DNA of 64,000 bases, from positions 124,093-188,092 of the forward strand of contig JBNLCO010000010.1 of NCBI GenBank assembly GCA_050303855.1, read 5' to 3'. Of this stretch, positions 21,637 through 47,585 are shown piece after piece (within the stretch, counting starts at the first letter, position 1; the number at the start of each line of letters is the position of its first letter). The notes below the pieces were generated by a model. That model was not told where the DNA came from, did not search any database, and saw nothing but the letters and a program-made list of their open reading frames with translations. The position numbers and the translations under genes are program-made. The DNA comes from Candidatus Pacearchaeota archaeon (lineage in GTDB: Archaea; Nanobdellota; Nanobdellia; Pacearchaeales; GW2011-AR1).

Positions 21637-21673
21637 TAAAAAAGGTTTTAAATGATCATTATTTATCAAGAAG

Positions 21674-24415: not shown

Positions 24416-24420
24416 GAACA

Positions 24421-27570: not shown

Positions 27571-27589
27571 GAATAATAATGTTTATTAA

Positions 27590-28612: not shown

Positions 28613-28694
28613 AATCACGAGAATATTTATAAAATAGAAAAAAATTCTAGATGAATGAGGAATAATTTTATTACATTTTGTAGGAGGTTATTGG

Positions 28695-29279: not shown

Positions 29280-29305
29280 AAAGAAAAACAAAGTTTTAGG
29301 AAGGT

Positions 29306-31349: not shown

Positions 31350-32002
31350 ACAATATTTTTTATGGAATACTTTCTGTAGGGTTTGACATCGATCAAACAA
31401 TGTACGCAAAAAATAGTGAAATAGACTTAATTATTCAAGATGAAATTGCGAGGAAGATTCTTGAAATAAAACCTTCTTTCAATAATCTTGAATCAGCAAA
31501 AGAATTTTCTGAAAGAAGATATTCTGAATTAGGGAGCCGAACAAGTGTGTTAGAAGAGGTTGGCTATAAAAATGCTCAAGAAATCTTGTACGGATGCATT
31601 TCAAGTGATAAAACAATAAACCCTCTCCAGAAAGACGAAAGGCTTCAGGAAATGATTTCAAGATTGGGACATAAATATGATCTTTTTTTAATAACTAATA
31701 ATTCGGAGGATATTGCGACTAAAAAATTAGATCGATTAGGTGTTGACAAGTCTTTATTTAACCTAAAATTTTATGGAGACACATTACCTGGAATAAAAAA
31801 ATCTGATGGTTCTTTGTTCAAATATTTCCTAAGTAGGTCCAAACATTCCCCTGAAAACCACATATATGTCGGAGATAGCCTTAATGCAGACATAATCCCT
31901 TCTAAAAAGCTAGGTTTCAAAACAATTTGTGTAGGAAATCACTTTCTTGAAGCGAATTATTCTGTTAAAGAAATTTATGATATAGAAAATCTTCTTCTAT
32001 AA
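31346..32002 (+). CDS. HAD-superfamily hydrolase (candidate heptose-bisphosphate phosphatase)
   Basis: DxDxT-like ..GFDIDQTM.. N-terminus. Context next to GmhA/HddA. Confidence 0.4.
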   Translation: MNNIFYGILSVGFDIDQTMYAKNSEIDLIIQDEIARKILEIKPSFNNLESAKEFSERRYSELGSRTSVLEEVGYKNAQEILYGCISSDKTINPLQKDERLQEMISRLGHKYDLFLITNNSEDIATKKLDRLGVDKSLFNLKFYGDTLPGIKKSDGSLFKYFLSRSKHSPENHIYVGDSLNADIIPSKKLGFKTICVGNHFLEANYSVKEIYDIENLLL

Positions 32003-32061
32003 GGCAATTTAGGGTAACCTAGGACATAAATTCTTTTAAAGGAATCACCCATCAAATATTA

Positions 32062-33849
32062 ATGAAGTTAGCAGATTATGTTATTGATTATTTTGGAGAT
32101 AAGGGAGTGAAGGATATATTTGAGGTCTATGGTGCTGCGAATGGTGATTTGATTGATGCTTTTACGAGAACAGATAAAACAAGATATGTTGCTATAATGC
32201 ACGAACAAGCTGCAGGGTTTGCTACAGAATGTTATTCTAAGATCAGCGGTAAGCCAGGTGTTGCGATAGCCACAAGTGGCCCTGGAGGCCAGAATTTTGT
32301 GACTCCAATTGCAAATTGTTATTATGATTCTGTTCCGGCAATTTTTATAACAGGTCAGGTAAACTCCAGATTTTTAAGGCCTGATGAAAGTATAAGACAG
32401 AGAGGATTCCAAGAAACCCCTATTGCAGAAATTGTTGCTCCCATAACAAAATATTCTAAAATGATTACAGACCCAAGCACAATAAAACATGAACTTGAAA
32501 AAGCATGGTATATTTCCCAAGAAGGAAGACCAGGCCCAATTCTTCTTGATCTTCCGATAGATATTCAAAAAGCGGAAGTAGATCCGTCAAAACTATTTGG
32601 GTTTAATTCAGAAACTTATAAAACCAATTTTAATATGGAACAGGTTAATAACCAGATAGACCACTATCTTGAAGACTTGTCCCGTGCTGAAAGACCAGTT
32701 ATTCTTGTTGGAGGAGGAGTAAGACCTTCAGGAGGAATAGAAAAACTTCTGAGTTTGGGAGAGAAATTAAAAATTCCGATGTTCCCCACATGGAATTCAT
32801 TAGATATTGTTACTTCTGATTACAATTACTATGGAGGAAGGGTTGGAACTTATGGCGGAAAAGGAAGAAACTTTGGTTTGCAGAACTCCGATTTAGTTTT
32901 GGCTTTGGGAAGCAGAATTTCTGGAAGACTTTATGGAAGCCAGACAAAGGCTTTCTTAAGAGATGCAAAGAAATATGTAGTAGATATTGATAAAGCTAAC
33001 TTACAACAAATATTCCAAGAAGTTCCCTTTGACGAGAACATTTTTTGTGACGCGAAAACTTTTATAGAAAGTTTAGATAAAAAGTTGGAAGGTGTTCCTA
33101 AGAAAGATTTCTCTTCATGGACAAGTAAAGTTATGGGTTGGAGAAACAAGTATGACCCTGTAAAGAAAGAATTTTTTGAGGCTAATGAGAATGCAAACCC
33201 CTATGCTTTTTTTAGAACACTTTCTCAAGAAATGAAATCTGGAGATATCCTTGTGGGAGACTGTGGGGGAAATATTGTTGTTGCTAGTCACGCTTTTGAA
33301 ACAAAGAAAGGGCAAAGATTCATTACAAATAATGGAAACTCCCCTATGGGATTTTCATTTTCAGGAGCCATGGGGGCCTACCTTGCTGCAAATGAAGGCC
33401 AAAATGTAGTTTGCACGATTGGAGATGGAGGTTTCAATATGAATATCCAAGAACTACAAACTTTAAAGAATTATGATCTAAATTTCAAGACATTCATAAT
33501 TAACAATGGAATTTATGGTATCACTAAAGCATTCCAAGAAAAGAAGTTTGAGGGTAGGGCTGAAGCATGTGGTCCAAAAGGCTATGTTCCTCCTAATTTT
33601 ATGGCCATATGTGATGCTTACGGAATTAAAACCGAATCTATAAAAGGAAATGATATTGATAGCATGAGAGAGAAAATTGGAGATGTTTTGAATTCAAAAG
33701 GTCCTGTTGTGTGTGATGTAAGTTGTCCAGACTGGCATACTTACGAACCAACAGTTTTTGGATCAGTCCCAATCGAAGAAATGCACCCTCAGTTGCCTGA
33801 AGAAGAATTCAGAGAAAATATGATTATAAAACCTTGGAAAAAGAAATAA
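32062..33849 (+). CDS. thiamine-diphosphate-dependent enzyme (acetolactate-synthase/YerE-like)
   Basis: 595 aa. Pyr domain (..AIMHEQAAGFATECYSKI..), central domain, PP domain with ..GDGGFNMNIQEL.. ThDP-binding motif. Confidence 0.75.
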   Translation: MKLADYVIDYFGDKGVKDIFEVYGAANGDLIDAFTRTDKTRYVAIMHEQAAGFATECYSKISGKPGVAIATSGPGGQNFVTPIANCYYDSVPAIFITGQVNSRFLRPDESIRQRGFQETPIAEIVAPITKYSKMITDPSTIKHELEKAWYISQEGRPGPILLDLPIDIQKAEVDPSKLFGFNSETYKTNFNMEQVNNQIDHYLEDLSRAERPVILVGGGVRPSGGIEKLLSLGEKLKIPMFPTWNSLDIVTSDYNYYGGRVGTYGGKGRNFGLQNSDLVLALGSRISGRLYGSQTKAFLRDAKKYVVDIDKANLQQIFQEVPFDENIFCDAKTFIESLDKKLEGVPKKDFSSWTSKVMGWRNKYDPVKKEFFEANENANPYAFFRTLSQEMKSGDILVGDCGGNIVVASHAFETKKGQRFITNNGNSPMGFSFSGAMGAYLAANEGQNVVCTIGDGGFNMNIQELQTLKNYDLNFKTFIINNGIYGITKAFQEKKFEGRAEACGPKGYVPPNFMAICDAYGIKTESIKGNDIDSMREKIGDVLNSKGPVVCDVSCPDWHTYEPTVFGSVPIEEMHPQLPEEEFRENMIIKPWKKK

Positions 33850-34479
33850 TTAAATTAATATTTTCTCTAATTCGTTTATAAATTTCTTTGAACCTTTACG
33901 AACTATTTTTTTATCTAAATAATTTTCTTCGGTATTGAGAACTAAATAGGAAACAAAATCAACCCCTGGATATTTGAAGTCAAGGTCTATATCTTCCCAG
34001 TACTTTGCTGTTTTATCCCAAACAGATACGTCTGAAGGATCTGAGATAAGTCCATCTGAAGGGGGCCTAGATTTCATTCTTTTCTTTGCTTCAGCCTCAG
34101 AACAAACACATTCTACAACAATTACATTCTTTCCTGCACCCGAAGCTACACCATAAATCTGTTGTCTTCTAAAGGTATGTCTATTTACGCTATCGATTAT
34201 TACCCCTTTCCCTTTGGTTAAATAATCCATTGCAGTCCGATCAATAAGCCTTAAAGTTTCTTCTTGTTTCTTTGGCATTTTTTTTAGTCCTAAATTACGT
34301 CTTACTTCGTTTTGAGAAATATATTCATAATTTTGGAGGCCTTTAGCCAATTTAGCAGAAGCACTAGTTTTACCTGTACCGGGGAAACCAGTCATCAAAA
34401 TGAGGTAATTTTCCATATAACCCCAATTTTTATTTAATTTAAATAGATTTATGTCTTTGTTTAGAATGTTTTCTTCCAT
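33850..34479 (-). CDS. P-loop NTPase/kinase (AAA_33-like)
   Basis: Walker A GFPGTGKTS. ~200 aa. Confidence 0.45.
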   Translation of the reverse strand: MEENILNKDINLFKLNKNWGYMENYLILMTGFPGTGKTSASAKLAKGLQNYEYISQNEVRRNLGLKKMPKKQEETLRLIDRTAMDYLTKGKGVIIDSVNRHTFRRQQIYGVASGAGKNVIVVECVCSEAEAKKRMKSRPPSDGLISDPSDVSVWDKTAKYWEDIDLDFKYPGVDFVSYLVLNTEENYLDKKIVRKGSKKFINELEKILI

Positions 34480-35128
34480 CTAAAATGAGTTCAGATTTTT
34501 TTTCTTTGTATGCAGCAAATATTTCTTCTGAAACATATTTTGGATCCATGGAGTTTTCTCTACCAGGTCGAGTTCTTATTCTAGTTGGATAAACTCCCAT
34601 CACATGTATTCCGTTTTCAATTGCTTCCAAATTTAAGCTATCTGTGAAACCCTTAAGCCCGTATTTGCATGCTGAAGCCACGCTACGAAACTTTTTGCTT
34701 TCAAGGCCCATTATTGAGTTAATATTTATGATTGTTCCAGAGTTCTTCTTTAAAAAAAGAGGATAAATTTCCTTAGATAATTTTATTGGAGCATATAGAT
34801 TTGTTTCGAGTAATTCGTCTACTGTTTCTCTGGATATTTTATCTAAGGGTAAACCAGGACAAAAAACCCCTGCATTATTTACTAAAATTGACAAGTCTTT
34901 TTTCTCTGCAATGTTTGCCAAGTCCTTAATAGTCTTCTCGGATCTTAAATCTCCATAAACCACTTCCACCTTTGACCCGTATTTTAGTATTTCTCTCTGA
35001 GAATCATTTAAGCTAGTTTTATCCCTTCCATGGATTATTAAATTGTAACCTTCTCTTGCAAAAGTTAAAGCTAATTCCTTTCCAAGACCTTTGCTAGAAC
35101 CAGTTATCAGAACAGATTCTTTTTTCAT
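34439..35128 (-). CDS. short-chain dehydrogenase/reductase (classical SDR)
   Basis: ITGSSKGLGKELA cofactor motif. ..NNAG.. and YxxxK regions. Confidence 0.7.
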   Translation of the reverse strand: MKKESVLITGSSKGLGKELALTFAREGYNLIIHGRDKTSLNDSQREILKYGSKVEVVYGDLRSEKTIKDLANIAEKKDLSILVNNAGVFCPGLPLDKISRETVDELLETNLYAPIKLSKEIYPLFLKKNSGTIININSIMGLESKKFRSVASACKYGLKGFTDSLNLEAIENGIHVMGVYPTRIRTRPGRENSMDPKYVSEEIFAAYKEKKSELILDGRKHSKQRHKSI

Positions 35129-35132
35129 TTTT

Positions 35133-36044
35133 TTAATTCGAAGAATTTTTTGAATACCAATCCAAAGTTTTTACAATACCTTCTTCAAGCGGGACTTTTT
35201 GAGACCACCCAATTTCATTTGCTTTGGTACAATCTAAGGATAGATTCATCTTAATCGTAGGTTTTGTTGTATCATGCTCAATTTTCAAATTCTTTCCGGA
35301 GGCATTAATGATCTTCTTTGTTAAGTCATTAACTGGTACTTGCTCTCCAGATCCAACATTATAAACCCCATCAAGTTCTTTTTCAAGAGCAATTTCCACA
35401 AAATCTACAAAATCAGAAACATACAAGAAATCTCTTTTTTCTTTTCCATCTCCCCAAATTACAATGCTTTCTCCGTCTGGAGTATTAGTAACTTCATTAA
35501 TTTTTGCTGCAAAAACATGAGAAGTAGCCAAATCAAAATTATCGTTAGGTCCGTAAATATTGGAGTGTCTCATCACAGTATGTTTTGTTCTTCCCAATCC
35601 AGAATAAAAATTGCACATATTTTCAAGATAAATCTTTGTACCTCCTCCACCTGAATATTTTACATTTGGAGAAGTGGGATCTGTTTCCTTATGGGGTTTA
35701 TCGCTTGAAGGGTAAACATTTGTACAGCTTGGAAATATAAACTGTTTAACATTATTTTCAAAAGCACTTCTTAACAAAAGAGAATTCATTACTGCATTAT
35801 CGGTTACATGAATATAAGGCCTCTCTATTATATCTTTAACCCCTGTACTCGTAGCAGCCATTTGAATTATAACGTCTTGACCTTTTACTACCCTTTCAAC
35901 GTCTTCTTTTCTAGTTAAATCGGCATATACATCTGATTTATTTCTAAATCCAACTCCTGTAACATCATATTTATCTTTTAGTCTTTCATATATGTTACTT
36001 CCTAAGAATCCTGTTGCTCCAGTTATTAACACTTTCTTTTTCAT
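35133..36044 (-). CDS. NAD-dependent sugar-nucleotide epimerase/reductase (extended SDR)
   Basis: ITGATGFLGSNIYERL motif. Confidence 0.7.
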   Translation of the reverse strand: MKKKVLITGATGFLGSNIYERLKDKYDVTGVGFRNKSDVYADLTRKEDVERVVKGQDVIIQMAATSTGVKDIIERPYIHVTDNAVMNSLLLRSAFENNVKQFIFPSCTNVYPSSDKPHKETDPTSPNVKYSGGGGTKIYLENMCNFYSGLGRTKHTVMRHSNIYGPNDNFDLATSHVFAAKINEVTNTPDGESIVIWGDGKEKRDFLYVSDFVDFVEIALEKELDGVYNVGSGEQVPVNDLTKKIINASGKNLKIEHDTTKPTIKMNLSLDCTKANEIGWSQKVPLEEGIVKTLDWYSKNSSN

Positions 36045-36081
36045 TATATATCTTCCTTTACTTTTTACTTTTTATATTTTA

Positions 36082-37062
36082 TCATTCAAAGATATTATAT
36101 CTTTTATTTACAATATCTTTATTTTCTTTATACCAATCCATTGTTCTCCGAACTCCCTCTTCTAGAGATACTTTTGGATTCCATCCAAGAGACTTTGCTC
36201 TTGATACATCCATTAACCTTATTTTATCTCCTCTTGGCATAGAAGGATCCCATTTTATGGAGGGTTTTCCTTCAATGTTATTTACAATTATATTTGCTAA
36301 TTCTTTTATGCTCTTTCTTTCCCCTGATCCAAGATTTAAAGGGTAGTCTGGGCCTGGAGCCTTTTCTAAAGCCACAAGCATTCCTTCAGCAACATCCTCT
36401 GAATAAATGAAATCTCTTATTGGACTTCCATCTCCTCCTACTTTAAGGGGATTTTCTCCATCAACAGCCCTTTTTATCAATGAAGGTATTACCATTGCGT
36501 TATTCACATCAAAGTTATCAAAAGGCCCGTAGACATTTGCAGGTCTTACTATTGCTGTTTTATCCCACCCATGTTGAATTTTATATGCCCTTGCTTGTAA
36601 TTCACCAGATCTCTTTGCATAACCCCCAAACAAATCATTCTCGGAAGGAAGCGTTTTGAAAACGTCATCCTCTCTCAAAATTTCGGCAGGTTGATAAACA
36701 CCTATTGTGCTTGTAAACAAGAATCTTTCTGTCCCCTCTTTTCTAGCAGCTTCCATCAAATTTGTATTAAATTGGAGAACAGGAACAAGAAAATTAGCTG
36801 GTTTTTCCAAGGTCATTTTTGGAGAACCTTTTATTCCAAGAAGATTAAAAACATAATCCTGTCCTTCGCAAGCAATTTCACAGTTGTGATAATTGGTTAG
36901 ATCAAGTTTCAAATATTCTGAATTGGGATTTGCCCTTGAAGGATCATCCATTGAAACAACTCTTACATTTGCACCTTCCTCAAGAAGTCTATTTACTAGA
37001 GGCTTTCCAATAAGTCCGGTTCCCCCTGCGACAAGAACGTTTTTTCCCTCATAAAAACCCAT
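36082..37062 (-). CDS. NAD-dependent sugar-nucleotide epimerase/reductase (extended SDR, GDP-fucose-synthase-like)
   Basis: VAGGTGLIGKPLVNRL motif. Confidence 0.7.
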   Translation of the reverse strand: MGFYEGKNVLVAGGTGLIGKPLVNRLLEEGANVRVVSMDDPSRANPNSEYLKLDLTNYHNCEIACEGQDYVFNLLGIKGSPKMTLEKPANFLVPVLQFNTNLMEAARKEGTERFLFTSTIGVYQPAEILREDDVFKTLPSENDLFGGYAKRSGELQARAYKIQHGWDKTAIVRPANVYGPFDNFDVNNAMVIPSLIKRAVDGENPLKVGGDGSPIRDFIYSEDVAEGMLVALEKAPGPDYPLNLGSGERKSIKELANIIVNNIEGKPSIKWDPSMPRGDKIRLMDVSRAKSLGWNPKVSLEEGVRRTMDWYKENKDIVNKRYNIFE

Positions 37063-37173
37063 AAAGAGATGTATTTCCTTTTCTTTTTAAGGATTTGTTT
37101 TATTGATAGTATATTTACAAAACATACAGAAAAGAACAATTAATTTTATAAACAATTATAGCCCAGGTTCAGG

Positions 37174-38304
37174 ATGGGAATTTCTTTTGGAGATTTGAGA
37201 GTCAGTAAGGAGTCTAGAAAACATCTTGAAGACTGTCTCAATAATAATATGATTTCTGGAGGAGATAAAGTGAAAATCTTGGAGGATTCTTGGGGAAAAC
37301 TTTTTGGATATAAATATAATGTTGCTATGGGTTCTGGAACAGATGCAGATATGGCTGCTGCAATGACTCTTTATGATACAGTGGAAGCCAAACCAGGTGA
37401 TGAGGTTATCGTTCCTGCTCTTGCATTTGCAGCCGTAGGGAATAGTGTAAGAGCTGCAGGTTTTACACCTAAATTTGTTGACATAGAAAGAGAAACATTA
37501 AACATCAACCCTGATTTGATTGAAGAAAAAATAACTCCAAAAACAAAGGCCATAATGGCAGTCCATACAATGGGAAAACCAAATGAGATGGACAAAATAA
37601 CTCAAATTGCAAACAAGTATAACCTAAGGGTTTTAGAAGATTGTTGTGAATCTCATGGGGGAGAATATAAGGGGAAGTTTTTAGGTAGCTTTGGGGATGC
37701 ATCTGCATTTAGTTTTTATGTTGCACACATTGTTTCTTGTGGTGATGGAGGCATGCTTTCAACAAACTCTGAAGAGATAAGCGATTTAGCCGATTCAGTA
37801 AAACACCACGGAAGAAAACCTAGAACAATTTATTTTGATCATCCAAGATTTGGTATGAATTTTAGGATGAATGCCTTGACAGCTTCCATAGGCATCCCCG
37901 AAATACAAAATTTTTGGAAGATTTTTGATAAAAGAAAAGGCAATTTGAATTATTTACTGGATTCAACAAAAGACCTTCAGGATTTTGCTTATTTTGTTAA
38001 GGAGGAACCTCATGAGGTTGTCTCTCCTCACGCTTTTAGTATAACTCTTAAAAATCCGGATCACGATTTCAAAGGATTGTATGCATTCTTAGAAAAAAAT
38101 GATATAGAATGTAAAAGAAACTTCGGGAGTATGCCAACACAGCATAAAGCTTTTGAATATCTTGGATACAAGAAAGGTGAATTTCCTGAAGCAGAGTATG
38201 TTGGAGATAATGGGTTGCATTTTGGAATCCATCAATTCTTAGAAAAGAGTGATTTAGATTATGCTTCAGAAAAAATCCACGAATATTTTAAAAAATTTAA
38301 ATAA
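37174..38304 (+). CDS. DegT/DnrJ/EryC1/StrS-family PLP/PMP enzyme, ColD/E1-type sugar 3-dehydratase candidate
   Basis: Family fold. Active-site motif reads SFYVAHIVSCGDGG with His where aminotransferases of this family have Lys. Confidence 0.65.
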   Translation: MGISFGDLRVSKESRKHLEDCLNNNMISGGDKVKILEDSWGKLFGYKYNVAMGSGTDADMAAAMTLYDTVEAKPGDEVIVPALAFAAVGNSVRAAGFTPKFVDIERETLNINPDLIEEKITPKTKAIMAVHTMGKPNEMDKITQIANKYNLRVLEDCCESHGGEYKGKFLGSFGDASAFSFYVAHIVSCGDGGMLSTNSEEISDLADSVKHHGRKPRTIYFDHPRFGMNFRMNALTASIGIPEIQNFWKIFDKRKGNLNYLLDSTKDLQDFAYFVKEEPHEVVSPHAFSITLKNPDHDFKGLYAFLEKNDIECKRNFGSMPTQHKAFEYLGYKKGEFPEAEYVGDNGLHFGIHQFLEKSDLDYASEKIHEYFKKFK

Positions 38305-38310
38305 AAAAAT

Positions 38311-39168
38311 TTATTTTTTAGAATCTAAAGATTGAATATAGTTCTTTATTTCATTCAAATTGTCTTCGGATATTTTGTAGAAAAGGTTTTCTTCGGGAAA
38401 ACTTCCAGATCTTATTTCGTTTACATAACTAGACAAACCTTTCTTCATTTCACTTCCAACATCTGAGAATTGTTTTACAAACTTAGCTTTTATTCCGCCT
38501 AAACCAACCACATCGTTAACTATTGCCAAGATACCGTCTACGTTTTTTCCAGCCCCGATTCCGTAAACAGGAATGTTCAAAGATTTTGCGATATATCCTG
38601 CAGGTTCATTTGGAACAGCTTCCAAAAGTATTGCGCAAGCTCCCGCGTCCTGTAATGCTTTTGAATCATTATAGAGGGTTTTGAATCCGTCTAAACTTTT
38701 TGATTGTACAACCCCCATTAGATCTGTTGATTGGGGTGTATATCCTATATGCCCTATTGTCGCTATCCCAGCATCTTTCAAGGCCTTTACTCTTTGAGTT
38801 ACTCTTTCTCCCCCTTCAAGCTTAACTGCATCAACACCTGCTTCTTTCATAAATCTTAATGCATTGAAAGTTGCATTTTCATTAGAAATTTGGTAAGAAC
38901 CTAAAGGCATATCCCCCACAATAAAAGTATTTGGAGCTCCTCTACGGACTGCTTTTGTTAACATGATCATCTCATCCATTGTTACTGGAATAGTATTTTC
39001 ATAACCTAGAAGATTATTTCCTGCAGAATCTCCAACAAGGATCATATCCACTCCAGACTCTTCAGCTATTCTTGCTGTTTGAAAATCATAAGAAGTTATC
39101 CATGTGACTTTTTCCCCTTTTTTTTTCATCTTTACAAGATCTCCGAGGGTTTTTCTCTTTCCTTCCAT
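38311..39168 (-). CDS. 3-methyl-2-oxobutanoate hydroxymethyltransferase (PanB) family protein
   Basis: ..ITSYDFQTARIAEESGVDMILVGDSAGNNLLGYENTIPVTMDEMI..VGDMPLGSY.. matches PanB family signatures. Confidence 0.65.
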   Translation of the reverse strand: MEGKRKTLGDLVKMKKKGEKVTWITSYDFQTARIAEESGVDMILVGDSAGNNLLGYENTIPVTMDEMIMLTKAVRRGAPNTFIVGDMPLGSYQISNENATFNALRFMKEAGVDAVKLEGGERVTQRVKALKDAGIATIGHIGYTPQSTDLMGVVQSKSLDGFKTLYNDSKALQDAGACAILLEAVPNEPAGYIAKSLNIPVYGIGAGKNVDGILAIVNDVVGLGGIKAKFVKQFSDVGSEMKKGLSSYVNEIRSGSFPEENLFYKISEDNLNEIKNYIQSLDSKK

Positions 39169-39394
39169 ATTCTTTGGTACAGGCTATTCTTTTTAAAATT
39201 AATTATATCCTAAAATACACTAAATAAAGGATGCTTTGATAAATTCAATTGTTTAACTAAGTTTTAGATTAAATTTATAACAATCCTTTTGGAAAAAATG
39301 TCTTTTACCCTATAAATATTTATAAACAATTTTCTTATTATTGGAAAATGAGGTTTATCATCTTTTTGAATAAAGTATTGATTGCAGGCAAAAG

Positions 39395-41440
39395 ATGAAA
39401 GCATTGATACTTGCAGGAGGATTTGGTACCCGACTTCAAGGGGTTGTTAAAGATGTTCCAAAACCAATGGCCTCTATTGCGGGAAAACCTTTTTTGGAGC
39501 ATCAGATACGTTATTTGAAAAGACAAGGAATTAACGAATTTATCTTGGGAGTTCATTATAAATCAGATGTCATAAAATCTTATTTTGGCAACGGTATGAG
39601 GCAAGATGTAAGCATAACTTATTCTGAAGAGGATTCTCCTCTTGGAACAGGGGGAGCAATAAAACTCGCGCAGAAATTCATTGACGGGCCATTTTTAGTT
39701 TTGAATGGGGACTCGTATACTGATTTGGATCTGGGCAAATTTATGAGATTCCATGAAAAAAATAATTCTGTTGCAAGCATGGTCTTGCAAAAAATGGAAA
39801 AGGATAATTCCCACTATGGAAATGTTGAATTAGAAGGGGATACAATAAAGAGATATTCCGAAAAAAAATCAGTTGGCAAAGGACTGTCCAATTCAGGAAT
39901 CTATTTATTTGATCAAGAGATATTTGACTACATTCCTGGATCTAAAAAGATTTCTTTGGAAGAAAGAGTGTTTCCTGAACTGGTAAAGAAGGGTGCTATT
40001 TCTGGATTTGTCAACAAAGGTTATTTTGTCGATATCGGAAGACCCGAGACCTATCTTCAATTTAAAAAAGATTTTATTGAGAAATTGCAATCTTCAAAAG
40101 ACATTATTTTAAGAGATGCTATAAAAAAGATGTATGAAAATGGTTCAGACATATTGTTTATGGTTAATGAAGAGAAAGAATTTCAAGGTTTGCTAACAGA
40201 TGGAATTATTAAAAGATACCTAATAAGAGGGGGAGAATTTGAAGCAGGAGTTGATGAAGCCATGATAGAAAAACCAGAAAGGATTGCTACAATAAAAGAC
40301 AGTGAGGATAAAATAAGAGGTTTCTTAAAAGAAGGGGTCAAGAATCTTCCAATACTGGACGAACAAGGAAAAATATACGATATTCGATTTAGAACCGAAG
40401 AGGTAAAAGGAGAAGAATATCCAACCATTAGAGGTAAAACTCCTTTGAGAATAAGTTTTGCAGGAGGCGGTACAGATATGCCCTATTTTTTTGAGAAATA
40501 CGGAGGGGCTGTAATAAGCACAACTATTGATAAGTATTGCAACATTACTGCAAAAAAAAGAGGGGATTCCAAAATCGTAATTAATTCGGATATTTTAGAG
40601 GAGGAAGTGATTTTGGATGCCGGGAATTTAAAATATGATAGAAGTAAATTTGATCTAGTAAAATCAGTATATAATCTTGTAAACCCGGGGTGTGGTGTTG
40701 ATCTCCATTTGAATAATGACGTACCTCCAGGAAGAGGTCTTGGTTCATCTGCATCATTTGCAGTTCTTTTAACTAAAATTTTGGGCAAGCTAAAAGGGAG
40801 TAATTTGAGTGATGAGGAAGTTGCAGAATTTGCTTATAGAGCAGAAGTTGAAGAATTGGGAATAAGAGGAGGCAAGCAAGATCAATACGCTGCAGTATTT
40901 GGAGGATTTAATTGGATGGAATTTGAAAATGGAAATAGAAAAATAATGACATCCCTTAGAATAAAAGAAGATACTTTGAATGAATTGAAAGATCATTTAA
41001 CTTTATGCTACACTGGCAAAGAACATGAATCAATCCATCAACAGAAGTTATTGGAAGACAAATTTAAAAAAGAGAACCAGAGTGCAATTGAAAGGCTAAA
41101 AAGAATGAAACTTAATGCACGAGAAATAAAGAATTATCTTCTATCTCCGACCCCCGATTTTCAAAGGATAGGCGAGATAACCCATAAAATCTGGACAGAT
41201 AAAAAGAAGACTTCTTCGAAAGTAACCAGCAAAGTTATTGAAAACCTTTATGAAGTGGGAATGACTAATGGATCATATGGAGGTAAGCTTTTAGGTTCTG
41301 GTGGGGGAGGCTACTTGTTATTTTTCCATCCTCCAGAAAAAAGGAACAAATTAGAGAGAGGATTATCTCAGGAAGGTGGAGAAATCATGAACTTCAATTT
41401 TACTGAAGATGGTGCCAAGATATGGGTTCCGAACAAATAA
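39395..41440 (+). CDS. Tri-domain protein: sugar-1-phosphate nucleotidyltransferase (HddC-like) + CBS pair + GHMP kinase (HddA-like heptose-7-phosphate kinase)
   Basis: N-terminal MKALILAGGFGTRL. Middle ..GLLTDGIIKRYL...LPILDEQGKIYDI.. CBS-like. C-terminal GHMP motif PPGRGLGSSASFAV. Confidence 0.7.
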   Translation: MKALILAGGFGTRLQGVVKDVPKPMASIAGKPFLEHQIRYLKRQGINEFILGVHYKSDVIKSYFGNGMRQDVSITYSEEDSPLGTGGAIKLAQKFIDGPFLVLNGDSYTDLDLGKFMRFHEKNNSVASMVLQKMEKDNSHYGNVELEGDTIKRYSEKKSVGKGLSNSGIYLFDQEIFDYIPGSKKISLEERVFPELVKKGAISGFVNKGYFVDIGRPETYLQFKKDFIEKLQSSKDIILRDAIKKMYENGSDILFMVNEEKEFQGLLTDGIIKRYLIRGGEFEAGVDEAMIEKPERIATIKDSEDKIRGFLKEGVKNLPILDEQGKIYDIRFRTEEVKGEEYPTIRGKTPLRISFAGGGTDMPYFFEKYGGAVISTTIDKYCNITAKKRGDSKIVINSDILEEEVILDAGNLKYDRSKFDLVKSVYNLVNPGCGVDLHLNNDVPPGRGLGSSASFAVLLTKILGKLKGSNLSDEEVAEFAYRAEVEELGIRGGKQDQYAAVFGGFNWMEFENGNRKIMTSLRIKEDTLNELKDHLTLCYTGKEHESIHQQKLLEDKFKKENQSAIERLKRMKLNAREIKNYLLSPTPDFQRIGEITHKIWTDKKKTSSKVTSKVIENLYEVGMTNGSYGGKLLGSGGGGYLLFFHPPEKRNKLERGLSQEGGEIMNFNFTEDGAKIWVPNK

Positions 41441-41442
41441 AA

Positions 41443-42314
41443 TGAATAATAATAAATCCAAGAAATTTGATTTGAATACTCCTGTTTTATTTTTAGTATT
41501 TAATCGATTAAATTCTACAAAAAAAGTTTTTGAAGAAATTAAGAAAGCTAAGCCAAAAAAAATATTCATAGCTGCAGATGGGCCTCGGAATCAAGAAGAA
41601 AAATCTAAGACAGATTCTGTTAGAGAATATATTATAAAAAACATTAAATGGAAATGTCAGGTCAAAACTCTTTTTCGGGAAAAAAACCTTGGTTGCAAAT
41701 ATGCAGTATCTTCCGCGATTGATTGGTTCTTCAAAAATGTTGAAAGAGGGATTATATTAGAGGATGATTGTTTGCCTAACCAAAGTTTCTTTAGATTTTG
41801 TCAAGAAATGCTTGAAAAATACAGGGATAACGAGAAAATAATGCATGTTTCAGGGACCAATATTGAAGAAGTCTCAAAAATTCCAGAGAGTTATTTCCTC
41901 TCAAGATGCACCAACGTTTGGGGATGGGCTACATGGAGAAGAGCTTGGAAAGATTATGATGTTGAAATGAGAAAATGGCCAATTTGGAAAATAAAAATTC
42001 TTGGTCTGATGAAAAATTATGGACTATTTAACAAAATAAAATCTTGGAGGTTGTATGAATTAACTTATAGAAATAAGATAAATACGTGGGACTACCAATG
42101 GGATTTCTTATGTAGAATAAAAAAAGGACTAAGCATTGTTCCAAAGGTTAATTTGATAACCAATCTCGGTTTTATTGAAGGAACCCATACAGTCAATTAT
42201 CAAAAAAATGAAAAAACATTAAAGAGGAGAGAGCTAAAATTCCCTTTAGAATCCAGAAAAATCAATATTTTGGAAGAATATCAGAAGAAATATTTTAGAT
42301 TCTTTGGGAAATAA
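41443..42314 (+). CDS. putative glycosyltransferase (HlpA-like nucleotide-diphospho-sugar transferase fold)
   Basis: ..VLFLVFNRLNSTKKVFEEI...ILEDDCLP.. pattern. Start at the TAAAATG junction. Confidence 0.4.
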
Positions 42315-42351
42315 GGAATATTTTTAAAAAGTGTATGGAATTGGTTAATCA

Positions 42352-43005
42352 ATGGTCGAAAAGCTTAGGGGAGATTATTCACTCCATACTTTCAAAAAAG
42401 AAATTTTTAGAAGAGTTCCAAGAAATTCTAAGGTTTTGGAAGTTGGATGTAATTTTGGTCTTTTAGGAAAAGCCCTTAAAGATAAAAAAGAATGTACTGT
42501 TTACGGTATAGAGATTTATGAGCCTGCTCTGAAGAAGGCTAAAGAGAATCTTGATTTAGCAAAGAAAGTAGATTTGGAAGATTATTCTTTACCATTTAAG
42601 GAGAAATTTGATGTAATAATCTTTGAAGATGTTCTCGAGCATATACGATACCCAGAAGTTACACTTAAATTATATAGGGATATGCTTACCCCAAAAGGAA
42701 AAATCATCATATCTCTTCCAAATGTTGCAAACATAAAAATTAGATTTAAACTTTTATTTGGAAAATGGGACTATGAAGATGAAGGGATACTAGACAAAAG
42801 TCATTTTAAATTTTATACAAGAAAAACTTCTCTTCTTCTCCTAAGAAATGCAGGCTACTCTGCAAAAATAGTAGACTTTACTCCAGGTTTTAGTTTTATA
42901 TTTTTTAGGTTTTACCCCTTATTAAAGAGAATAAGGAAGGTTCTATGTTCAATAAACCCAAAATTATTTTCACAACAGTTTATCCTAGAAGGAAAATTAA
43001 GATGA
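42352..43005 (+). CDS. class I SAM-dependent methyltransferase
   Basis: ..VLEVGCNFGLLGKAL... motif I. ..IIFEDVLEH.. motif. Confidence 0.6.
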   Translation: MVEKLRGDYSLHTFKKEIFRRVPRNSKVLEVGCNFGLLGKALKDKKECTVYGIEIYEPALKKAKENLDLAKKVDLEDYSLPFKEKFDVIIFEDVLEHIRYPEVTLKLYRDMLTPKGKIIISLPNVANIKIRFKLLFGKWDYEDEGILDKSHFKFYTRKTSLLLLRNAGYSAKIVDFTPGFSFIFFRFYPLLKRIRKVLCSINPKLFSQQFILEGKLR

Positions 43006-43886
43006 AATCCAAACCATTTGTAAATATTGTATTGCTAAATTTAAACAATTATTTGGATACAGTAGAATGTTTGGATTCGATTAAAAATATAGAATATAAG
43101 AAATGGGGCATAACGCTTTTAGATAATGGATCTACAGACAATTCTTTTGATAAGTTGAAGAAGAAATATGGAAAGAACAAGAAAATAAAATTCATGTCAA
43201 ACAAAACAAACTTAGGATTTGCTAAAGCAAACAATCAGGCTATGAAAAAGGACCTATTTGACTCTGATTATTTTCTTTTGTTAAATAATGATACAATTGT
43301 TAAGAGAGATTTTTTAACAAAACTTGTTCATGAAGAAAAAGATCTAATTTCTCCTTTAATTTACAACTACTATTCTAAGAAAGAATTGAGTAGAAACGAT
43401 TTTCCAGGAAAATTCAATCTTTTTATTGGAGGGGGGAGAGCAATCAACCCTGTGAGAGATAAAACAACCAAGGTAGATTATGCTTCAGGGTGTTGTTGGT
43501 TAATAAAGAAGTCATTATTCAAAGAAACAAACGGGTTTAACGAGGAATATTTTGCATATAATGAGGAAGTTGAGTGGGCGTATAGGTTGAGAAAATCAGG
43601 CTATCAATTTTACTTGTCCGGCCATTCAAAGATCTGGCACAAAGGGGCAAAAACCTCTTCTAAAATATCAGGTTTCAAAATGAAATTTATGAACCGAAAT
43701 ATAATCTGGTTTGAAAAAAAATATGCCGGATGGAAATATCCTATTTTCCTAATATATTTATTTTTATATAGGGTTCCAAAGAACATTATTAAGATTATCG
43801 TCTCGAGGAAAGAAGTTGTTAAAAACATAAAGAGTTTTTTTTCAGGTCTTGGAGAAGGTTTATTTTCAAAAGAGGTAAATCAATAA
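42945..43886 (+). CDS. GT2-family glycosyltransferase
   Basis: ..IVLLNLNNYLDTVECLDS.. and ..LLNNDTIV.. (DXD-region). Probable true start at Met ~42981. Confidence 0.7.
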   Translation: MFNKPKIIFTTVYPRRKIKMKSKPFVNIVLLNLNNYLDTVECLDSIKNIEYKKWGITLLDNGSTDNSFDKLKKKYGKNKKIKFMSNKTNLGFAKANNQAMKKDLFDSDYFLLLNNDTIVKRDFLTKLVHEEKDLISPLIYNYYSKKELSRNDFPGKFNLFIGGGRAINPVRDKTTKVDYASGCCWLIKKSLFKETNGFNEEYFAYNEEVEWAYRLRKSGYQFYLSGHSKIWHKGAKTSSKISGFKMKFMNRNIIWFEKKYAGWKYPIFLIYLFLYRVPKNIIKIIVSRKEVVKNIKSFFSGLGEGLFSKEVNQ

Positions 43887-43910
43887 AAACCCTTTTTTAC
43901 TGAAGAAAGT

Positions 43911-45716
43911 ATGTGTGGAATAAACGGATTTAATTTTTTAGACAAAAAAACTCTAAGATCTATGAATGGGTCTCTGAGTCATAGGGGCCCTGACGGATCA
44001 GGAGAATTCTTTGATACAAGGGGCAAAGTTTCACTCGGGCATCTAAGACTTTCTATTATTGACTTATCTAAAAAAGGATCTCAGCCAATGACTTATACCC
44101 ACAAAGGGAAGAAGGTAGTTATTGTATTTAATGGGGAAATCTATAATTTTATGGAAATAAAAGAAGATCTCTTGAAAAAAGGACATAGGTTTAAATCAAA
44201 TTCGGATACGGAGATTATAACTGCAAGTTATTTGGAATGGGGAAAGGAATGTGTAAAGAAGTTCAACGGTATGTGGGCTTTTTGTATCTATGATCCTCAA
44301 AAAGAAATCTTGTTCTTATCCAGAGACCGAATTGGAAAAAAGCCAATTTACTATTACTTTGATAAGAAGAAATTTATTTTTTCATCAGAAATAAAGGGTA
44401 TATTGGAACATAAAGTAAAGAAAAAAATAAATCCAGAGTCATTGGATCTTTATTTCTCTCTAGGATTCATCCCTGCTCCTTATTCAATTTATGAGAATAT
44501 ATTTAAGCTAGAGCAAAGACAATCAGTGATATTTGATTTGAACAAGAAAAAACTTACAAAAGAATATTATTATCACTGGCCCGAATATTCACCAAAGAGA
44601 AATAAAGATAAGAATATCGAAGAAATAAAGAATCTTCTGAGGGACTCGGTTAAGAGGAGAATGATTTCTGATGTCCCTTTAGGCGCTTTCCTTTCTGGAG
44701 GTCTCGATAGCTCGACAATAGTTAACTTTGCAAAGAAACTAAACCCAAACATAAATACTTATTCAATTGGATTTGAAGGCAAATATGATGAAACCCAAAA
44801 CATAAACCAAATAGTTAAAAAATTCAAGACAAAACACCACCATAAATATTATCACGAATCTGATTTCAAAAAAGGTTTAAAGAAAATATTTTATTACTAT
44901 GATGAGCCTTTTTCGGATCCTTCCATGTTTCCAACTATATTTCTTTCAAGGTTTGCTCGTCAAAAAATCACAGTATCTCTTAGCGGAGATGGAGGGGATG
45001 AAATTTTTGGAGGTTATCCAAGGTACAAAAAAGCAAAACAACTTGAGAAATTAATGAAAATCCCAAGATTTTTAAGAAAAATTGTTTTACATCTCCCCCT
45101 GCCTTATTCTCTCAAAGAAGGAATCAAATTAAGTTTGAATAAAAAGGATTTGTTCTATTCTGAAGCAAGAAGTGATTTCTATAAACCATTCGTTACTAAG
45201 AATCTGCTTCAAGAAAAATTAGCATCGTGTCTTAAAAGAACAAAAGGCAACCTTGTAGAGGCAGTTAGGCTGATGGACATTGAATTTTATACTCTTCCGG
45301 ATAATTTCTTAACTAAGGTAGACCGAGCTTCTATGGCCAATGGATTAGAGATTAGATGTCCTTTTTTAGATTACAAAATTATAGAATACTCTATGAAAAT
45401 TCCAACAAAATATAGGGTTTCATTATTTAGAGATAAAATTCTTTTTAAGAAAATTATAAAGAATTTCTTGCCCAAAAAGATTATCTCACAAAAAAAGAAA
45501 GGATTTACTCCTCCAATAAATGATTGGATTTCTCGAAAAGAGTACGGAGATACACTCAACAAAATCATATCTGAATTGGAAAAAAATAAGGTGTTGTCTG
45601 GAGATTGGATCAATTTTTATAAAAAAAGGATACTGGATAGAAACTCTCTTGTTGAAAATAACTATAAAATAAGACTTTATTTGTTCTATGAATGGTATAA
45701 ACTTTGGATTAAATAG
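43911..45716 (+). CDS. asnB: asparagine synthase (glutamine-hydrolysing)-family amidotransferase
   Basis: MCGINGF N-terminal nucleophile. ..SGGLDSS.. PP-loop. Confidence 0.8.
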   Translation: MCGINGFNFLDKKTLRSMNGSLSHRGPDGSGEFFDTRGKVSLGHLRLSIIDLSKKGSQPMTYTHKGKKVVIVFNGEIYNFMEIKEDLLKKGHRFKSNSDTEIITASYLEWGKECVKKFNGMWAFCIYDPQKEILFLSRDRIGKKPIYYYFDKKKFIFSSEIKGILEHKVKKKINPESLDLYFSLGFIPAPYSIYENIFKLEQRQSVIFDLNKKKLTKEYYYHWPEYSPKRNKDKNIEEIKNLLRDSVKRRMISDVPLGAFLSGGLDSSTIVNFAKKLNPNINTYSIGFEGKYDETQNINQIVKKFKTKHHHKYYHESDFKKGLKKIFYYYDEPFSDPSMFPTIFLSRFARQKITVSLSGDGGDEIFGGYPRYKKAKQLEKLMKIPRFLRKIVLHLPLPYSLKEGIKLSLNKKDLFYSEARSDFYKPFVTKNLLQEKLASCLKRTKGNLVEAVRLMDIEFYTLPDNFLTKVDRASMANGLEIRCPFLDYKIIEYSMKIPTKYRVSLFRDKILFKKIIKNFLPKKIISQKKKGFTPPINDWISRKEYGDTLNKIISELEKNKVLSGDWINFYKKRILDRNSLVENNYKIRLYLFYEWYKLWIK

Positions 45717-46821
45717 TTTCAAATATTTTTATAAACCTTTTAGAGAATTTTTTTAATTCAAATTCCTTTATGAATTTTTTTCTTCCCGTAAGACCCATTT
45801 TTTTCCTTTTGTTGAAATTCTTTAACTTTAAAACAGCCTCCGCTATTTCTTCGGGTTTATTTTCCTTTAGAACGAATCCTGTTTTTTCATCATCAATTAT
45901 TGAGGGTATGGTTGCTATTCCATTTGCAACAACAGGGATCCCAAACATCATCCCTTCAATTATAACCCTTCCAAAAGTCTCCAAGGGATATTCTGTTGGA
46001 AATATTATAATATCAGACTTACTTAGGACCATGTTTTTTTCCTCTCCTGATTTTTTTCCTAGGTAAGAGATGTTCTCTTGTAGATTGTGTGATGTGGCAA
46101 AATTCTTGAATAAATTGAATTCGTTTTTTCCAGGAAAAGCGCCAACAAAAGCACAATTAAATTTTAATCCAGATTTTTTTAATAAAACACAAGATTGAAG
46201 TAGTTTCATCCATCCTTTGGAGATATCCATATTTGATAAAAAAAGAAGGTCAAGTTTTCGTTTTGAACTTTTTTTGTTTATAAGTTTACTTAGTTCTTTT
46301 TCGGATACCACGTTCTCAATTGCGTTAGGAAGTAAAATTATGTTCTCTCTAGATATTGAACCGTGTAGATCTTTGATAAGTTCTTCTCCTAACAGAATGA
46401 TTTTTTGGTTTTTAATCATCTTTGATAATTTTCGCTTAAACGATTTTTTTCCCCAATCGTTATCAAGAATCCTACTCCTTAGATGAAAAATAATCTTTCC
46501 CGCATAATTCTTCTTTATTTGTTTCCAGAATAAATAATCTCTCTTGAAACCCCAGGAAGAAGTTGCAGGGACAAAATATATTACGTCTGGGTTAAATTTC
46601 TTTAAAGTCTTTTTAATCATAGATCTTACCTTAAAAAAACCCCTTATTTTTTCGATATTGAATTTTCCTATATCAGATATTTTTTTAGAATAGTTTAGAC
46701 GAATGTTTTCTACATCAAATTTTCTAGAATCATTTAATATCTTAAGGCACATCTCGCTAGAAAGTGCACTCCCGTAATTAGGGGGAGGTAACGGACTTAT
46801 GAACAAGATTCTCTTTTTCAT
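45709..46821 (-). CDS. glycosyltransferase, GT1-fold
   Basis: ..IIFPTEYPLETFGRVIIEGMMFGIPVVA...GFV.. C-terminal GT-B motif. Confidence 0.65.
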   Translation of the reverse strand: MKKRILFISPLPPPNYGSALSSEMCLKILNDSRKFDVENIRLNYSKKISDIGKFNIEKIRGFFKVRSMIKKTLKKFNPDVIYFVPATSSWGFKRDYLFWKQIKKNYAGKIIFHLRSRILDNDWGKKSFKRKLSKMIKNQKIILLGEELIKDLHGSISRENIILLPNAIENVVSEKELSKLINKKSSKRKLDLLFLSNMDISKGWMKLLQSCVLLKKSGLKFNCAFVGAFPGKNEFNLFKNFATSHNLQENISYLGKKSGEEKNMVLSKSDIIIFPTEYPLETFGRVIIEGMMFGIPVVANGIATIPSIIDDEKTGFVLKENKPEEIAEAVLKLKNFNKRKKMGLTGRKKFIKEFELKKFSKRFIKIFETI

Positions 46822-47549
46822 TTTATCAAGGTTGTGTGTTTAAGGAGGTATTTATTTGCCATAAAACTTCGTTTCACTTTTTTCCAAGTATGTCTGAAAT
46901 CGGTTATTAACCTATAGAACCATTCCAAACCAATAGATTGGAAAAACGTTGGAGATTGTTTTTTGTTCCCTTTTGCATAATCAAAGAATGCACCGACATT
47001 AAAGAAAAAAGACACATTTACTTTTTCTGATAAATCGTTAGATAAAATTTCCTGTTTGGGGTTTCCAATTGCAATCCAAACATAATCTGTCTTTATTTTT
47101 TTTATCTTTTTTACTAATTCACTGTCATCAAATTTCTCTTTTTTTAGTTGAGGAAGCCCGTAGTAAAAACAACTTGTTTTTTTTAATAAAGGGTATTTTT
47201 CAACAATGTTTTCTATATCTTCTTCTGAAAAATTTCCAATAAATAAATGTCTTTTTCCTTTTAGAATAGCCTCATTTTTCATAAAAGAATCTGAGAAATC
47301 AGGACCCTTCAATCTTTTTACGGGTTTTAGAAATTTGAAGGATAATATAATGGAGAGGATAAAACCATCAACAAAGTTATAATTTTTGTCTTTTAATATA
47401 TGTTCTCTAAAAATTTTGTGATTTCTGAACAAATATACAGTGTGAGAATTTACAAAATTAAAAATAGAATTTTTTGGGAATTCATTCTGAGAGATTCTTT
47501 CAAATAAACCATTAATTGACGTTTCTGTTAAACCTAATGATTCTTTCAT
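46818..47549 (-). CDS. WecB/TagA/CpsF-family (GT26) glycosyltransferase
   Basis: ..FVNSHTVYL...YVWIAIGNPKQE...GLEWFYRL.. family motifs. Confidence 0.7.
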   Translation of the reverse strand: MKESLGLTETSINGLFERISQNEFPKNSIFNFVNSHTVYLFRNHKIFREHILKDKNYNFVDGFILSIILSFKFLKPVKRLKGPDFSDSFMKNEAILKGKRHLFIGNFSEEDIENIVEKYPLLKKTSCFYYGLPQLKKEKFDDSELVKKIKKIKTDYVWIAIGNPKQEILSNDLSEKVNVSFFFNVGAFFDYAKGNKKQSPTFFQSIGLEWFYRLITDFRHTWKKVKRSFMANKYLLKHTTLIK

Positions 47550-47585
47550 GTAAATTTAAGAAATAAGCCCATTAAAAGGGTTTTG

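Follow-up and report, generated by a model that had tools for sequence, protein, structure and literature searches.

A gene in an archaeal glycan island raises three questions: whether it really encodes two enzymes and a CBS pair in one chain, which reactions it catalyses, and what the CBS pair does. The gene lies at 39395..41440 on the forward strand of a 64,000-nucleotide stretch (the window) of a Candidatus Pacearchaeota archaeon genome (assembly GCA_050303855.1, contig JBNLCO010000010.1, positions 124,093 to 188,092). A first-pass annotation of the window had described the gene as a fusion of an HddC nucleotidyltransferase, a CBS pair and an HddA heptose kinase. We found that the fusion is real and conserved, a fresh arrangement of familiar parts and no new type of system. 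In this DPANN archaeon, the gene probably encodes a bifunctional enzyme that catalyses two steps (2 and 4) on the way to GDP-D-glycero-α-D-manno-heptose.

The gene is a single ATG-started open reading frame (ORF) of 681 amino acids with 0 internal stops in the ORF list, and an identical (100%) protein is present in NCBI (P0001, assembly GCA_050302495.1, contig JBNLBP010000001.1). A word-indexed homologue search returned 667 matches at E ≤ 1e-10, of which we examined the best 120. Among these, more than 115 clusters (90% identity) contain proteins of about 670–690 amino acids that align with the window protein at 47–71% identity over 99–100% of the query, and there are a few proteins of 704–728 amino acids and a few fragments. 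The sequences were drawn from NCBI, JGI, ENA, Logan and Tara assemblies, and the organism names on these best 120 matches, where given, are all DPANN (Nanoarchaeota, Pacearchaeota, Woesearchaeota, Nanoarchaeia); the relatives of the fusion come nearly all from metagenome-assembled genomes (MAGs) of DPANN archaea, and databases name them by generic automatic labels only. The full-length AlphaFold model has a predicted local distance difference test score (pLDDT) of 88.4 and a predicted template modelling score (pTM) of 0.83. The ORF list, Pfam, NCBIfam, the CBS profile and the fold search described below all bear out a single HddC-CBS-HddA polypeptide, and a frameshift or misread stop codon that would break it into separate genes is excluded by the full-length clusters.

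In the N-terminal part, we found a match to Pfam NTP_transferase at residues 2–226 (E 8e-35). The best solved relative is Yersinia HddC (YpHddC, 6jq8/5xhw, E 4e-39), and in a Foldseek search with the predicted fold, YpHddC 5xhw was matched with a template modelling (TM) score of 0.88, normalised to the target. We used a family alignment of 50 members to call invariant residues. The G-x-G-x-R signature is present (L6-A-G-G9-F-G11-T-R13), with G9 invariant and G11 and R13 nearly invariant, and the EXXPLGTGGA motif is intact (E79-D-S-P-L-G-T-G-G-A88), with E79 invariant. A pairwise alignment places E79 on Glu80 of YpHddC. In the complex of YpHddC with GMPPN, Glu80 of this motif hydrogen-bonds guanine N1/N2, and in an E80Q variant the GTP preference is gone (PMC6981941). 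From the E79 motif and the GDP-sugar enzymes encoded in the neighbourhood, we predict that the domain uses GTP.

In the C-terminal part, Pfam GHMP_kinases_N matches at residues 421–504 (E 5e-20) and GHMP_kinases_C at 587–660 (E 9e-5). The best solved relatives are putative heptokinases (Campylobacter 4n3o, E 1e-61; Burkholderia WcbL 4usk, E 3.5e-55; Bacteroides 3k85), and the predicted fold matched WcbL 4usk with a TM score of 0.88, normalised to the target. Mutagenesis and complementation of WcbL identified R13, D22, S118–S120, Q162 and D163 as essential, with D163 as the catalytic base and R13 stabilising the transferred phosphate (PMC4691232). Their counterparts in the window protein, by pairwise alignment, are R352, D361, S451/S452/A453, Q495 and D496; R352, D361, S452, Q495 and D496 are invariant among the 50 family members, and S451 and A453 are nearly so.

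Several points weigh against a heptose assignment. The top NCBIfam models are HddC (NF049965) for the N-terminus, at residues 1–225, and HddA (NF049969) for the C-terminus, at residues 344–677, but their scores of 197.3 and 245.8 bits lie below the equivalog cut-offs of 300 and 600, so that strict orthology is not established for either domain. Using three DPANN GmhB-like proteins as tblastn queries, we found no homologue in the 64-kb window of GmhB, the phosphatase that acts between the kinase and the transferase in the established pathway. MurU has a Glu equivalent to that of the EXXPLGTGGA motif but uses UTP (PMC6981941); because of this, the motif favours GTP use and does not prove it. The WcbL complexes contain mannose only (PMC4691232), and these structures therefore define no 7-phosphate-binding residues that would tell heptose-7-phosphate from a hexose. 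The literature searched contained no biochemical work on any member of the tri-domain family. Judged by sequence, with all the functional residues compared in place and the equivalog scores missed, both catalytic domains appear to be HddC-like and HddA-like, and we use these names because the curated equivalog thresholds are not reached.

The CBS pair

The CBS pair is real despite its sub-threshold Pfam score. Of the domains expected from the first-pass annotation, NTP_transferase and GHMP_kinases_N/C were found by Pfam in the window protein, whereas CBS fell below threshold when the window sequence was searched alone: the only match is weak (238–276, E 0.012, 16.3 bits against a gathering score of 24), and the excised CBS segment reaches 22.4 bits, also below the gathering score. 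The family gives a clearer picture. When residues 226–346 were cut from the family alignment (32 members) and used as a profile against the PDB, 77 solved chains were found at E ≤ 0.01; all those listed are CBS-domain proteins, with alignments that cover both CBS motifs, and the top matches are MJ1225 (3kh5, E 3e-13) and 2rc3 (E 1e-11). All 32 excised family segments match Pfam CBS at E ≤ 0.01, the best at 1e-12. An AlphaFold model of the segment alone has a pLDDT of 89.4, and the top 50 Foldseek matches of this model in the PDB are all CBS pairs (TM about 0.63–0.75), including OpuCA, the cystathionine β-synthase regulatory domain, IMPDH, MJ0100, MgtE and KpsF-type isomerases. Domain searches thus support the pair through the family profile, the relatives in Pfam and the predicted fold. 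In both the full-length and the CBS-only model, the final α-helix (α2) of CBS2 is absent and the chain passes directly into the kinase domain.

We searched 50%-identity representatives exhaustively and sorted the top 150 matches. These comprise 4 full-length tri-domain clusters (P0030, P0122, P0123, P0129; 681–700 amino acids), about 9 clusters of HddC-HddA fusions without a CBS pair (552–602 amino acids), about 40 CBS-HddA clusters (442–481 amino acids) and 1 CBS-HddC cluster (349 amino acids). The CBS-HddA proteins align with the window protein in one unbroken stretch, from residue ~230 to 678, and one of them (P0139) used as a query has 7,458 relatives at E ≤ 1e-40, with names that include Flavobacteriales, Sulfurimonas, Campylobacterota and Gammaproteobacteria. 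The pair had been described as inserted between the two enzymes, and this description does not hold: ancestrally, the pair is the N-terminal module of the CBS-HddA kinases, which form a huge family, and it lies in the middle of the protein because an upstream hddC gene was fused to a CBS-HddA gene. The fusion inherited the pair from its CBS-HddA kinase ancestor. The bacterial members of this family (about 453 amino acids, annotated as 'sugar kinase' or 'CBS domain-containing protein') share the CBS and GHMP unit with the fusion and differ in having no fused HddC; in at least one case, Sulfurimonas L089, they have the same neighbours (a GmhB-like HAD gene, an hddC-like gene and an SIS gene). 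No study of the CBS-HddA kinases surfaced in the literature searches, which were aimed at the fusion and did not target the family itself.

The canonical adenosyl-binding motif of CBS domains is G-h-h-T/S-x-x-D/N. In CBS1 of the fusion the motif reads G265-h-h-(N/T)268-(D/E)-x-I271, and the final Asp/Asn, the ribose-binding Asp, is replaced by Ile271; this position holds Ile (33 of 50 sequences) or another hydrophobic residue. In CBS2 the motif reads D329-h-x-F332-x-x-E335, where the leading Gly has become Asp329 and an invariant Phe332 takes the place of the Thr/Ser, with the acidic residue still present. By motif frequency, E335 and N/T268 are each ~98% conserved, and most invariant positions of the module hold Gly, Pro or Phe (G265, P319, F332). 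Each site thus appears, from its motif, to retain some canonical elements and to have lost others. Control by an adenosyl ligand, which the first-pass annotation had suggested, is no more than a generic expectation for CBS pairs.

Thousands of kinases have kept the module, which speaks for a function, and the degenerate motifs, the missing helix and the fusions that lack the pair indicate that this function could be structural. Most likely, the pair, joined to the kinase, mediates dimerisation, senses nucleotides or does both. One alternative accepts the enzymatic assignment and takes the pair as purely structural, a dimerisation element or spacer that joins the catalytic domains without a regulatory ligand; we give it a substantial chance, somewhat short of even. 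The replacements at positions 271, 329 and 332 favour this alternative, but the conservation of E335 and N/T268 speaks against it, as does the canonical G-x-x-T-x-x-D motif in CBS1 of the bacterial L089 sequence (G-x-x-T-D-G-D). Similarly, the absence of the last CBS2 helix from both models, the Gly, Pro and Phe character of the invariant residues and the ~9 representative clusters of direct HddC-HddA fusions fit a spacer, whereas the retention of the pair in thousands of CBS-HddA kinases and the ligand-sensing CBS pairs of its closest folds (IMPDH, OpuCA, MgtE) speak against one.

At the other end of the range, the pair might be a true allosteric sensor common to the DPANN tri-domain enzymes and the thousands of bacterial CBS-HddA kinases, which we consider rather unlikely, at perhaps one chance in a few. 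If so, the module would bind a nucleotide, responding to the balance of ATP, ADP and AMP, to GTP or to GDP-heptose as the end product, and by this means the cell would control the flow of sedoheptulose-7-phosphate into the making of surface glycans. In the tri-domain enzymes, such a sensor might couple the two non-consecutive active sites, or it might recruit the GmhB phosphatase for a direct hand-on of the bisphosphate intermediate.

Pathway and phosphatase step

In the pathway that we propose, a separate GmhA would first convert sedoheptulose-7-phosphate to heptose-7-phosphate (step 1). The GHMP kinase domain of the fusion would then use ATP to phosphorylate O1 and give heptose-1,7-bisphosphate (step 2), with D496 as the catalytic base and R352 stabilising the transferred phosphate. 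A separate phosphatase would take off the 7-phosphate (step 3); this would be a GmhB-like HAD-IIIA enzyme in relatives and possibly the HAD-IA enzyme at 31346..32002 in this island. The N-terminal domain would combine heptose-1-phosphate with GTP to form GDP-heptose, with E79 reading the guanine (step 4), and the heptose 4,6-dehydratase-like enzyme, the Fcl-like reductases and the aminotransferase encoded nearby would modify GDP-heptose for an AglB-dependent N-glycan (step 5). Domain identities, conserved catalytic residues, neighbouring genes and the way in which the fusion arose are established by the analysis, whereas the substrates, the choice of GTP, the phosphatase of this genome and any regulation through the CBS pair are inferences.

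The neighbourhood in the window contains genes that fit the first and last of these steps. The GmhA-like gene lies 10 kb upstream of the fusion, and its product scores 201 bits against TIGR00441 gmhA (cut-off 209) and matches the phosphoheptose isomerase 1tk9 in the PDB at E 2e-49. It is 41–52% identical to most of the gmhA products encoded between bacterial hddA and hddC, and it is 62% identical to the product of the SIS gene next to the fusion in relative L085 and 55–57% in L087. The best PDB match of the dehydratase-like short-chain dehydrogenase/reductase (SDR) is Campylobacter 7us5, a GDP-D-glycero-D-manno-heptose 4,6-dehydratase (E 2e-88), as compared to E 3e-41 to 6e-34 for the best GDP-mannose 4,6-dehydratases, and this SDR is 45–52% identical to homologues beside bacterial hddA-gmhA-hddC clusters. 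In bacterial species-representative loci with all three genes (among the best 80 of 584 matches), the genes are mostly separate and in the order hddA-gmhA-hddC.

At least two DPANN loci were among the matches listed in the scan of species-representative genomes; the gene contexts of DPANN relatives, obtained by exact protein look-ups, bear directly on step 3. Five relatives (L003, L005, L085, L087, L092) have a GmhB-like HAD-IIIA gene (170–183 amino acids) immediately before the fusion, and their fusions include the closest relative of the window protein (L092, 71% identical; L085, 57%; L087, 52%; L003, 50%). In L003, L087 and L092, the end of the gmhB-like gene overlaps the start of the fusion by 4 nucleotides, and L085, L087 and L092 have an SIS/GmhA gene next to the fusion or in its vicinity. 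Against the GmhB model NF006506, with a cut-off of 178, the GmhB-like protein of L003 scores 145 bits, and it exceeds the thresholds of the domain models for HAD-IIIA and histidinol-phosphatase, TIGR01656 among them. The two catalytic steps are non-consecutive, as the first-pass annotation had noted, and the intervening GmhB-like 7-phosphatase is a separate gene in these relatives.

In the window itself, a motif scan of the six reading frames found no GmhB-type signature of the form [hydrophobic]2-D-x-D-G-T/V, in addition to the negative tblastn result given above. The HAD-IA hydrolase is not GmhB-like by NCBIfam. Relative L091, which has no gmhB next to its fusion, has the same 218-amino-acid HAD in the same position, and HAD-IA hydrolases stand in the place of GmhB in L001 and L091; the L001 HAD-IA protein as a tblastn query gave no match in the window. 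We infer that this sub-lineage either swapped GmhB for a HAD-IA phosphatase or encodes GmhB elsewhere in its genome.

A different reading takes its lead from FKP, the Bacteroides L-fucokinase/GDP-fucose pyrophosphorylase, which like the fusion has an N-terminal guanylyltransferase and a C-terminal GHMP anomeric kinase in one chain, and whose full-length structure 9iit is among the Foldseek matches. In such a salvage scheme, the kinase would place a phosphate on the anomeric carbon of a free sugar that carries none (such as mannose, a heptose or a deoxy sugar) and the N-terminal domain would directly activate the sugar-1-phosphate, so that the steps would be consecutive and no phosphatase would be required. 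We consider this improbable. DPANN archaea are host-dependent, which would in general favour salvage, and the missing GmhB homologue in the window points the same way, but a gmhB-like gene precedes the fusion directly in five relatives, the closest included, and overlaps its start in three. The domain order and the plain mannose bound in WcbL crystals (PMC4691232) also fit salvage, but the same island encodes a GmhA-like enzyme, whose product would be heptose-7-phosphate, and a dehydratase that fits a heptose-specific enzyme far better than the GDP-mannose dehydratases. FKP itself differs in catalysing consecutive steps on a free sugar, in its size of ~950 amino acids and in having no CBS pair, and the FKP model (NF009948) matches only the kinase part of the window protein, weakly (residues 430–643, 75 bits against a cut-off of 721). 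The architecture resembles FKP, but the context does not suit a salvage role.

The heptose assignment is closer in function to HldE (RfaE), which like the fusion combines steps 2 and 4 of a nucleotide-heptose pathway in one polypeptide, with a separate GmhB acting between them. HldE consists of a ribokinase-type kinase and a cytidylyltransferase-type transferase. We found no PfkB or CTP_transf_like match in the window protein with Pfam or NCBIfam; its parts are a GHMP kinase and an NTP_transferase, and the likeness is functional only, without family membership. The domain order is also reversed, HldE has no CBS pair, and the fusion is predicted to use GTP and the alpha anomer where HldE uses ATP and the beta anomer. 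The WcbL paper summarises the pathway and describes the bifunctional HldE (PMC4691232). The stand-alone HddA/WcbL and HddC of Yersinia, Campylobacter and Burkholderia are the best sequence and fold matches of both catalytic domains, with the known functional residues conserved and with gmhA, gmhB and the GDP-heptose 4,6-dehydratase as common partners. They differ in being separate bacterial genes, whereas the window gene is fused with a CBS pair in between, at 30–37% identity.

Literature searches on HddA/HddC and archaea, on heptose and DPANN, and on bifunctional GHMP/CBS proteins returned no description of the tri-domain fusion, and the DPANN or archaeal papers found mention heptose only incidentally. 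Our assignment would indicate a GDP-heptose branch of N-glycosylation in DPANN archaea, probably of a 6-deoxy or amino-heptose, and DPANN archaea have minimal genomes and yet keep a glycan island of ~28 kb here. It would also make this the second, independently evolved fusion of nucleotide-heptose steps 2 and 4, after HldE, and that these steps were fused twice suggests a selective advantage in co-expression or co-localisation around the phosphatase step. In practice, the chemo-enzymatic synthesis of GDP-heptoses could make use of the fused enzyme as a compact catalyst. The comparison draws attention as well to the very large bacterial family of CBS-heptokinase-like proteins (Campylobacterota, Flavobacteriales, Gammaproteobacteria); how these enzymes are regulated could be of importance for the biosynthesis of capsules and glycans.

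Origin of the fusion

In two bacterial loci, from a Sulfurimonas (L089) and a gammaproteobacterium (L090), an NTP_transferase gene of 234–237 codons overlaps by 14 nucleotides the CBS-GHMP kinase gene that follows it. In L089, a GmhB-like HAD gene precedes this pair of genes and an SIS gene lies two genes downstream. The domains of the window protein are 38% (nucleotidyltransferase), 24–30% (CBS) and 38–43% (kinase) identical to the separate bacterial products. The loss of one stop codon in such an hddC to CBS-kinase arrangement would yield exactly the tri-domain protein.

We built a rough neighbour-joining tree of the kinase domains, which has no support values and which we use as a suggestion only. 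All CBS-bearing kinase domains fall in one large group, which also contains a few CBS-less proteins (stand-alone kinases and two direct fusions or fragments), and the tri-domain proteins appear at three places inside this group, a hint that HddC was fused to CBS-HddA more than once. One tri-domain cluster (P0129/P0270, MSO89949.1; 700–706 amino acids, 33% identical) is annotated from a Rhodospirillaceae MAG, so the architecture is not strictly archaeal. In the tree this cluster groups with a bacterial CBS-HddA protein, which points to a fusion event of its own or to gene transfer between domains of life.

Because bacterial hddC and cbs-hddA genes are adjacent and overlapping, a single sequencing error could imitate the fusion, and the window gene might be an assembly or gene-calling artefact with a stop codon lost between the two genes in one MAG; the chance of this is negligible, since the same unbroken architecture recurs in more than 115 independent clusters, drawn from a wide range of samples and data sources, at 47–71% identity, the linker region is gap-free in the family alignment and the full-length model is confident, and we rejected this reading on the breadth of independent full-length homologues.

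At the bacterial loci L008, L009, L011 and L017, single-ORF fusions were considered and rejected: the HddC and HddA matches, which are adjacent and ~1.6–1.7 kb long, lie in different reading frames and belong to separate genes. Among the best 80 of 584 matches, no bacterial single-ORF fusion was evident, with the frame-by-frame check covering these four loci, at which hddC comes immediately before hddA.

The bacterial relatives also show gene arrangements of their own. In L089 (9359..12551) and L090 (9359..11251), the hddC-like and CBS-kinase genes are followed by a gene of ~630 codons that encodes a NeuB/SAF-AP_endonuc_2 fusion, after which L089 has the SIS gene and a CMP-sugar synthetase-like gene (CTP_transf_3). 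This hints that the bacterial module may feed a pathway of the ulosonic-acid type instead of, or besides, ordinary GDP-heptose use. In the single-cell genome of a Nitromaritima (Nitrospinota; L007, 2239..3672), the gene for a 477-amino-acid CBS-CBS-GHMP kinase has B12-binding radical SAM genes, SPASM radical SAM genes and a separate, divergent NTP_transferase gene as its neighbours. B12-binding radical SAM genes recur next to DPANN fusions (L001, L003, L087).

The surrounding glycan island

The fusion gene lies inside a glycan island at 20650..48980 of the window (~28 kb), between SecY (16267..17661) and SecDF (49025..51432). Both the island and its placement beside SecDF are conserved in relatives L003, L085, L086 and L087. 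The initiating transferase and AglB/STT3 mark the island as one for N-glycosylation (Table 1). AglB is followed by methyltransferases and GT1 enzymes, and the dehydratase-like SDR by a GT10 enzyme, the HAD-IA hydrolase and a thiamine diphosphate (ThDP) enzyme. Downstream of the fusion there are further glycosyltransferases, an Asn-synthase-like amidotransferase and a flippase, and the island also holds FkbM-type and other methyltransferases, GT1/GT2/GT10/WecG glycosyltransferases and several SDRs.

Table 1. The fusion gene, its domains and other features of the glycan island, in window coordinates
Feature	Extent in protein	Coordinates	Strand	Evidence or remark
HddC-like / CBS pair / HddA-like tri-domain protein	681 aa	39395..41440	+	Complete ORF; homologues; full-length AlphaFold model
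HddC-like sugar-1-phosphate nucleotidyltransferase, predicted guanylyltransferase	Residues 1-228	39395..40078	+	Pfam, NCBIfam, PDB, motifs
CBS pair (Bateman-type), final α-helix of CBS2 absent	Residues 229-342	40079..40420	+	Profile, Pfam in relatives, fold
GHMP sugar kinase, HddA/WcbL-like	Residues 343-681 and stop codon	40421..41440	+	NCBIfam, PDB, residues
GT4-family initiating transferase and AglB/STT3 oligosaccharyltransferase	AglB/STT3, 913 aa	20650..24415	+	Pfam Glycos_transf_4, STT3, STT3-PglB_core
SDR		27590..28612		
GmhA-like sedoheptulose-7-phosphate isomerase (pathway step 1)		28695..29279	+	TIGR00441, PDB
GDP-D-glycero-D-manno-heptose 4,6-dehydratase-like SDR; would consume the predicted product		29306..30286	+	PDB 7us5
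HAD-IA hydrolase, sole phosphatase candidate in the island		31346..32002	+	Pfam HAD_2/Hydrolase; D-x-D-x-T motif
Acetolactate-synthase-like ThDP enzyme, in sugar-modification cluster		32062..33849	+	TPP_enzyme_N/M/C; conserved in L091
KTI12/AAA_33-type P-loop kinase	209 aa	33850..34479	-	Conserved in L091
Two GDP-L-fucose-synthase-like SDRs (GDP-sugar epimerase/reductases, downstream)		35133..37062	-	NCBIfam GDPFucSynFcl top for both
DegT/DnrJ/EryC1 sugar aminotransferase (downstream modification)		37174..38304	+	Pfam E 8e-82
PanB, ketopantoate hydroxymethyltransferase, between the DegT gene and the fusion		38311..39168	-	
ORF with 32-nt overlap with the 3' end of the fusion	301 aa	41409..42314	+	No Pfam/NCBIfam match

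The two Fcl-like SDRs match GDP-L-fucose synthases in the PDB at E 1e-35 and 2e-29. The DegT aminotransferase gene sits immediately before the fusion in the syntenic relative L091. The position that panB occupies in the window holds a gmhB or HAD gene in most relatives and nothing in L091, where panB is found elsewhere in the island; this indicates that the placement of panB is a local rearrangement. In relatives L001, L003, L085, L087 and L092, E1_dh/transketolase-like genes stand beside the fusion in place of the ThDP enzyme. The ThDP and transketolase-like genes could supply sedoheptulose-7-phosphate, or they could attach a two-carbon branch to a keto-sugar in the manner of YerE. In L091 and L092, ORFs of 286 and 313 amino acids without matches follow the fusion, and we liken them to the 301-amino-acid ORF of the window by position only. 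This ORF may be a conserved partner of the fusion, possibly an unrecognised glycosyltransferase.

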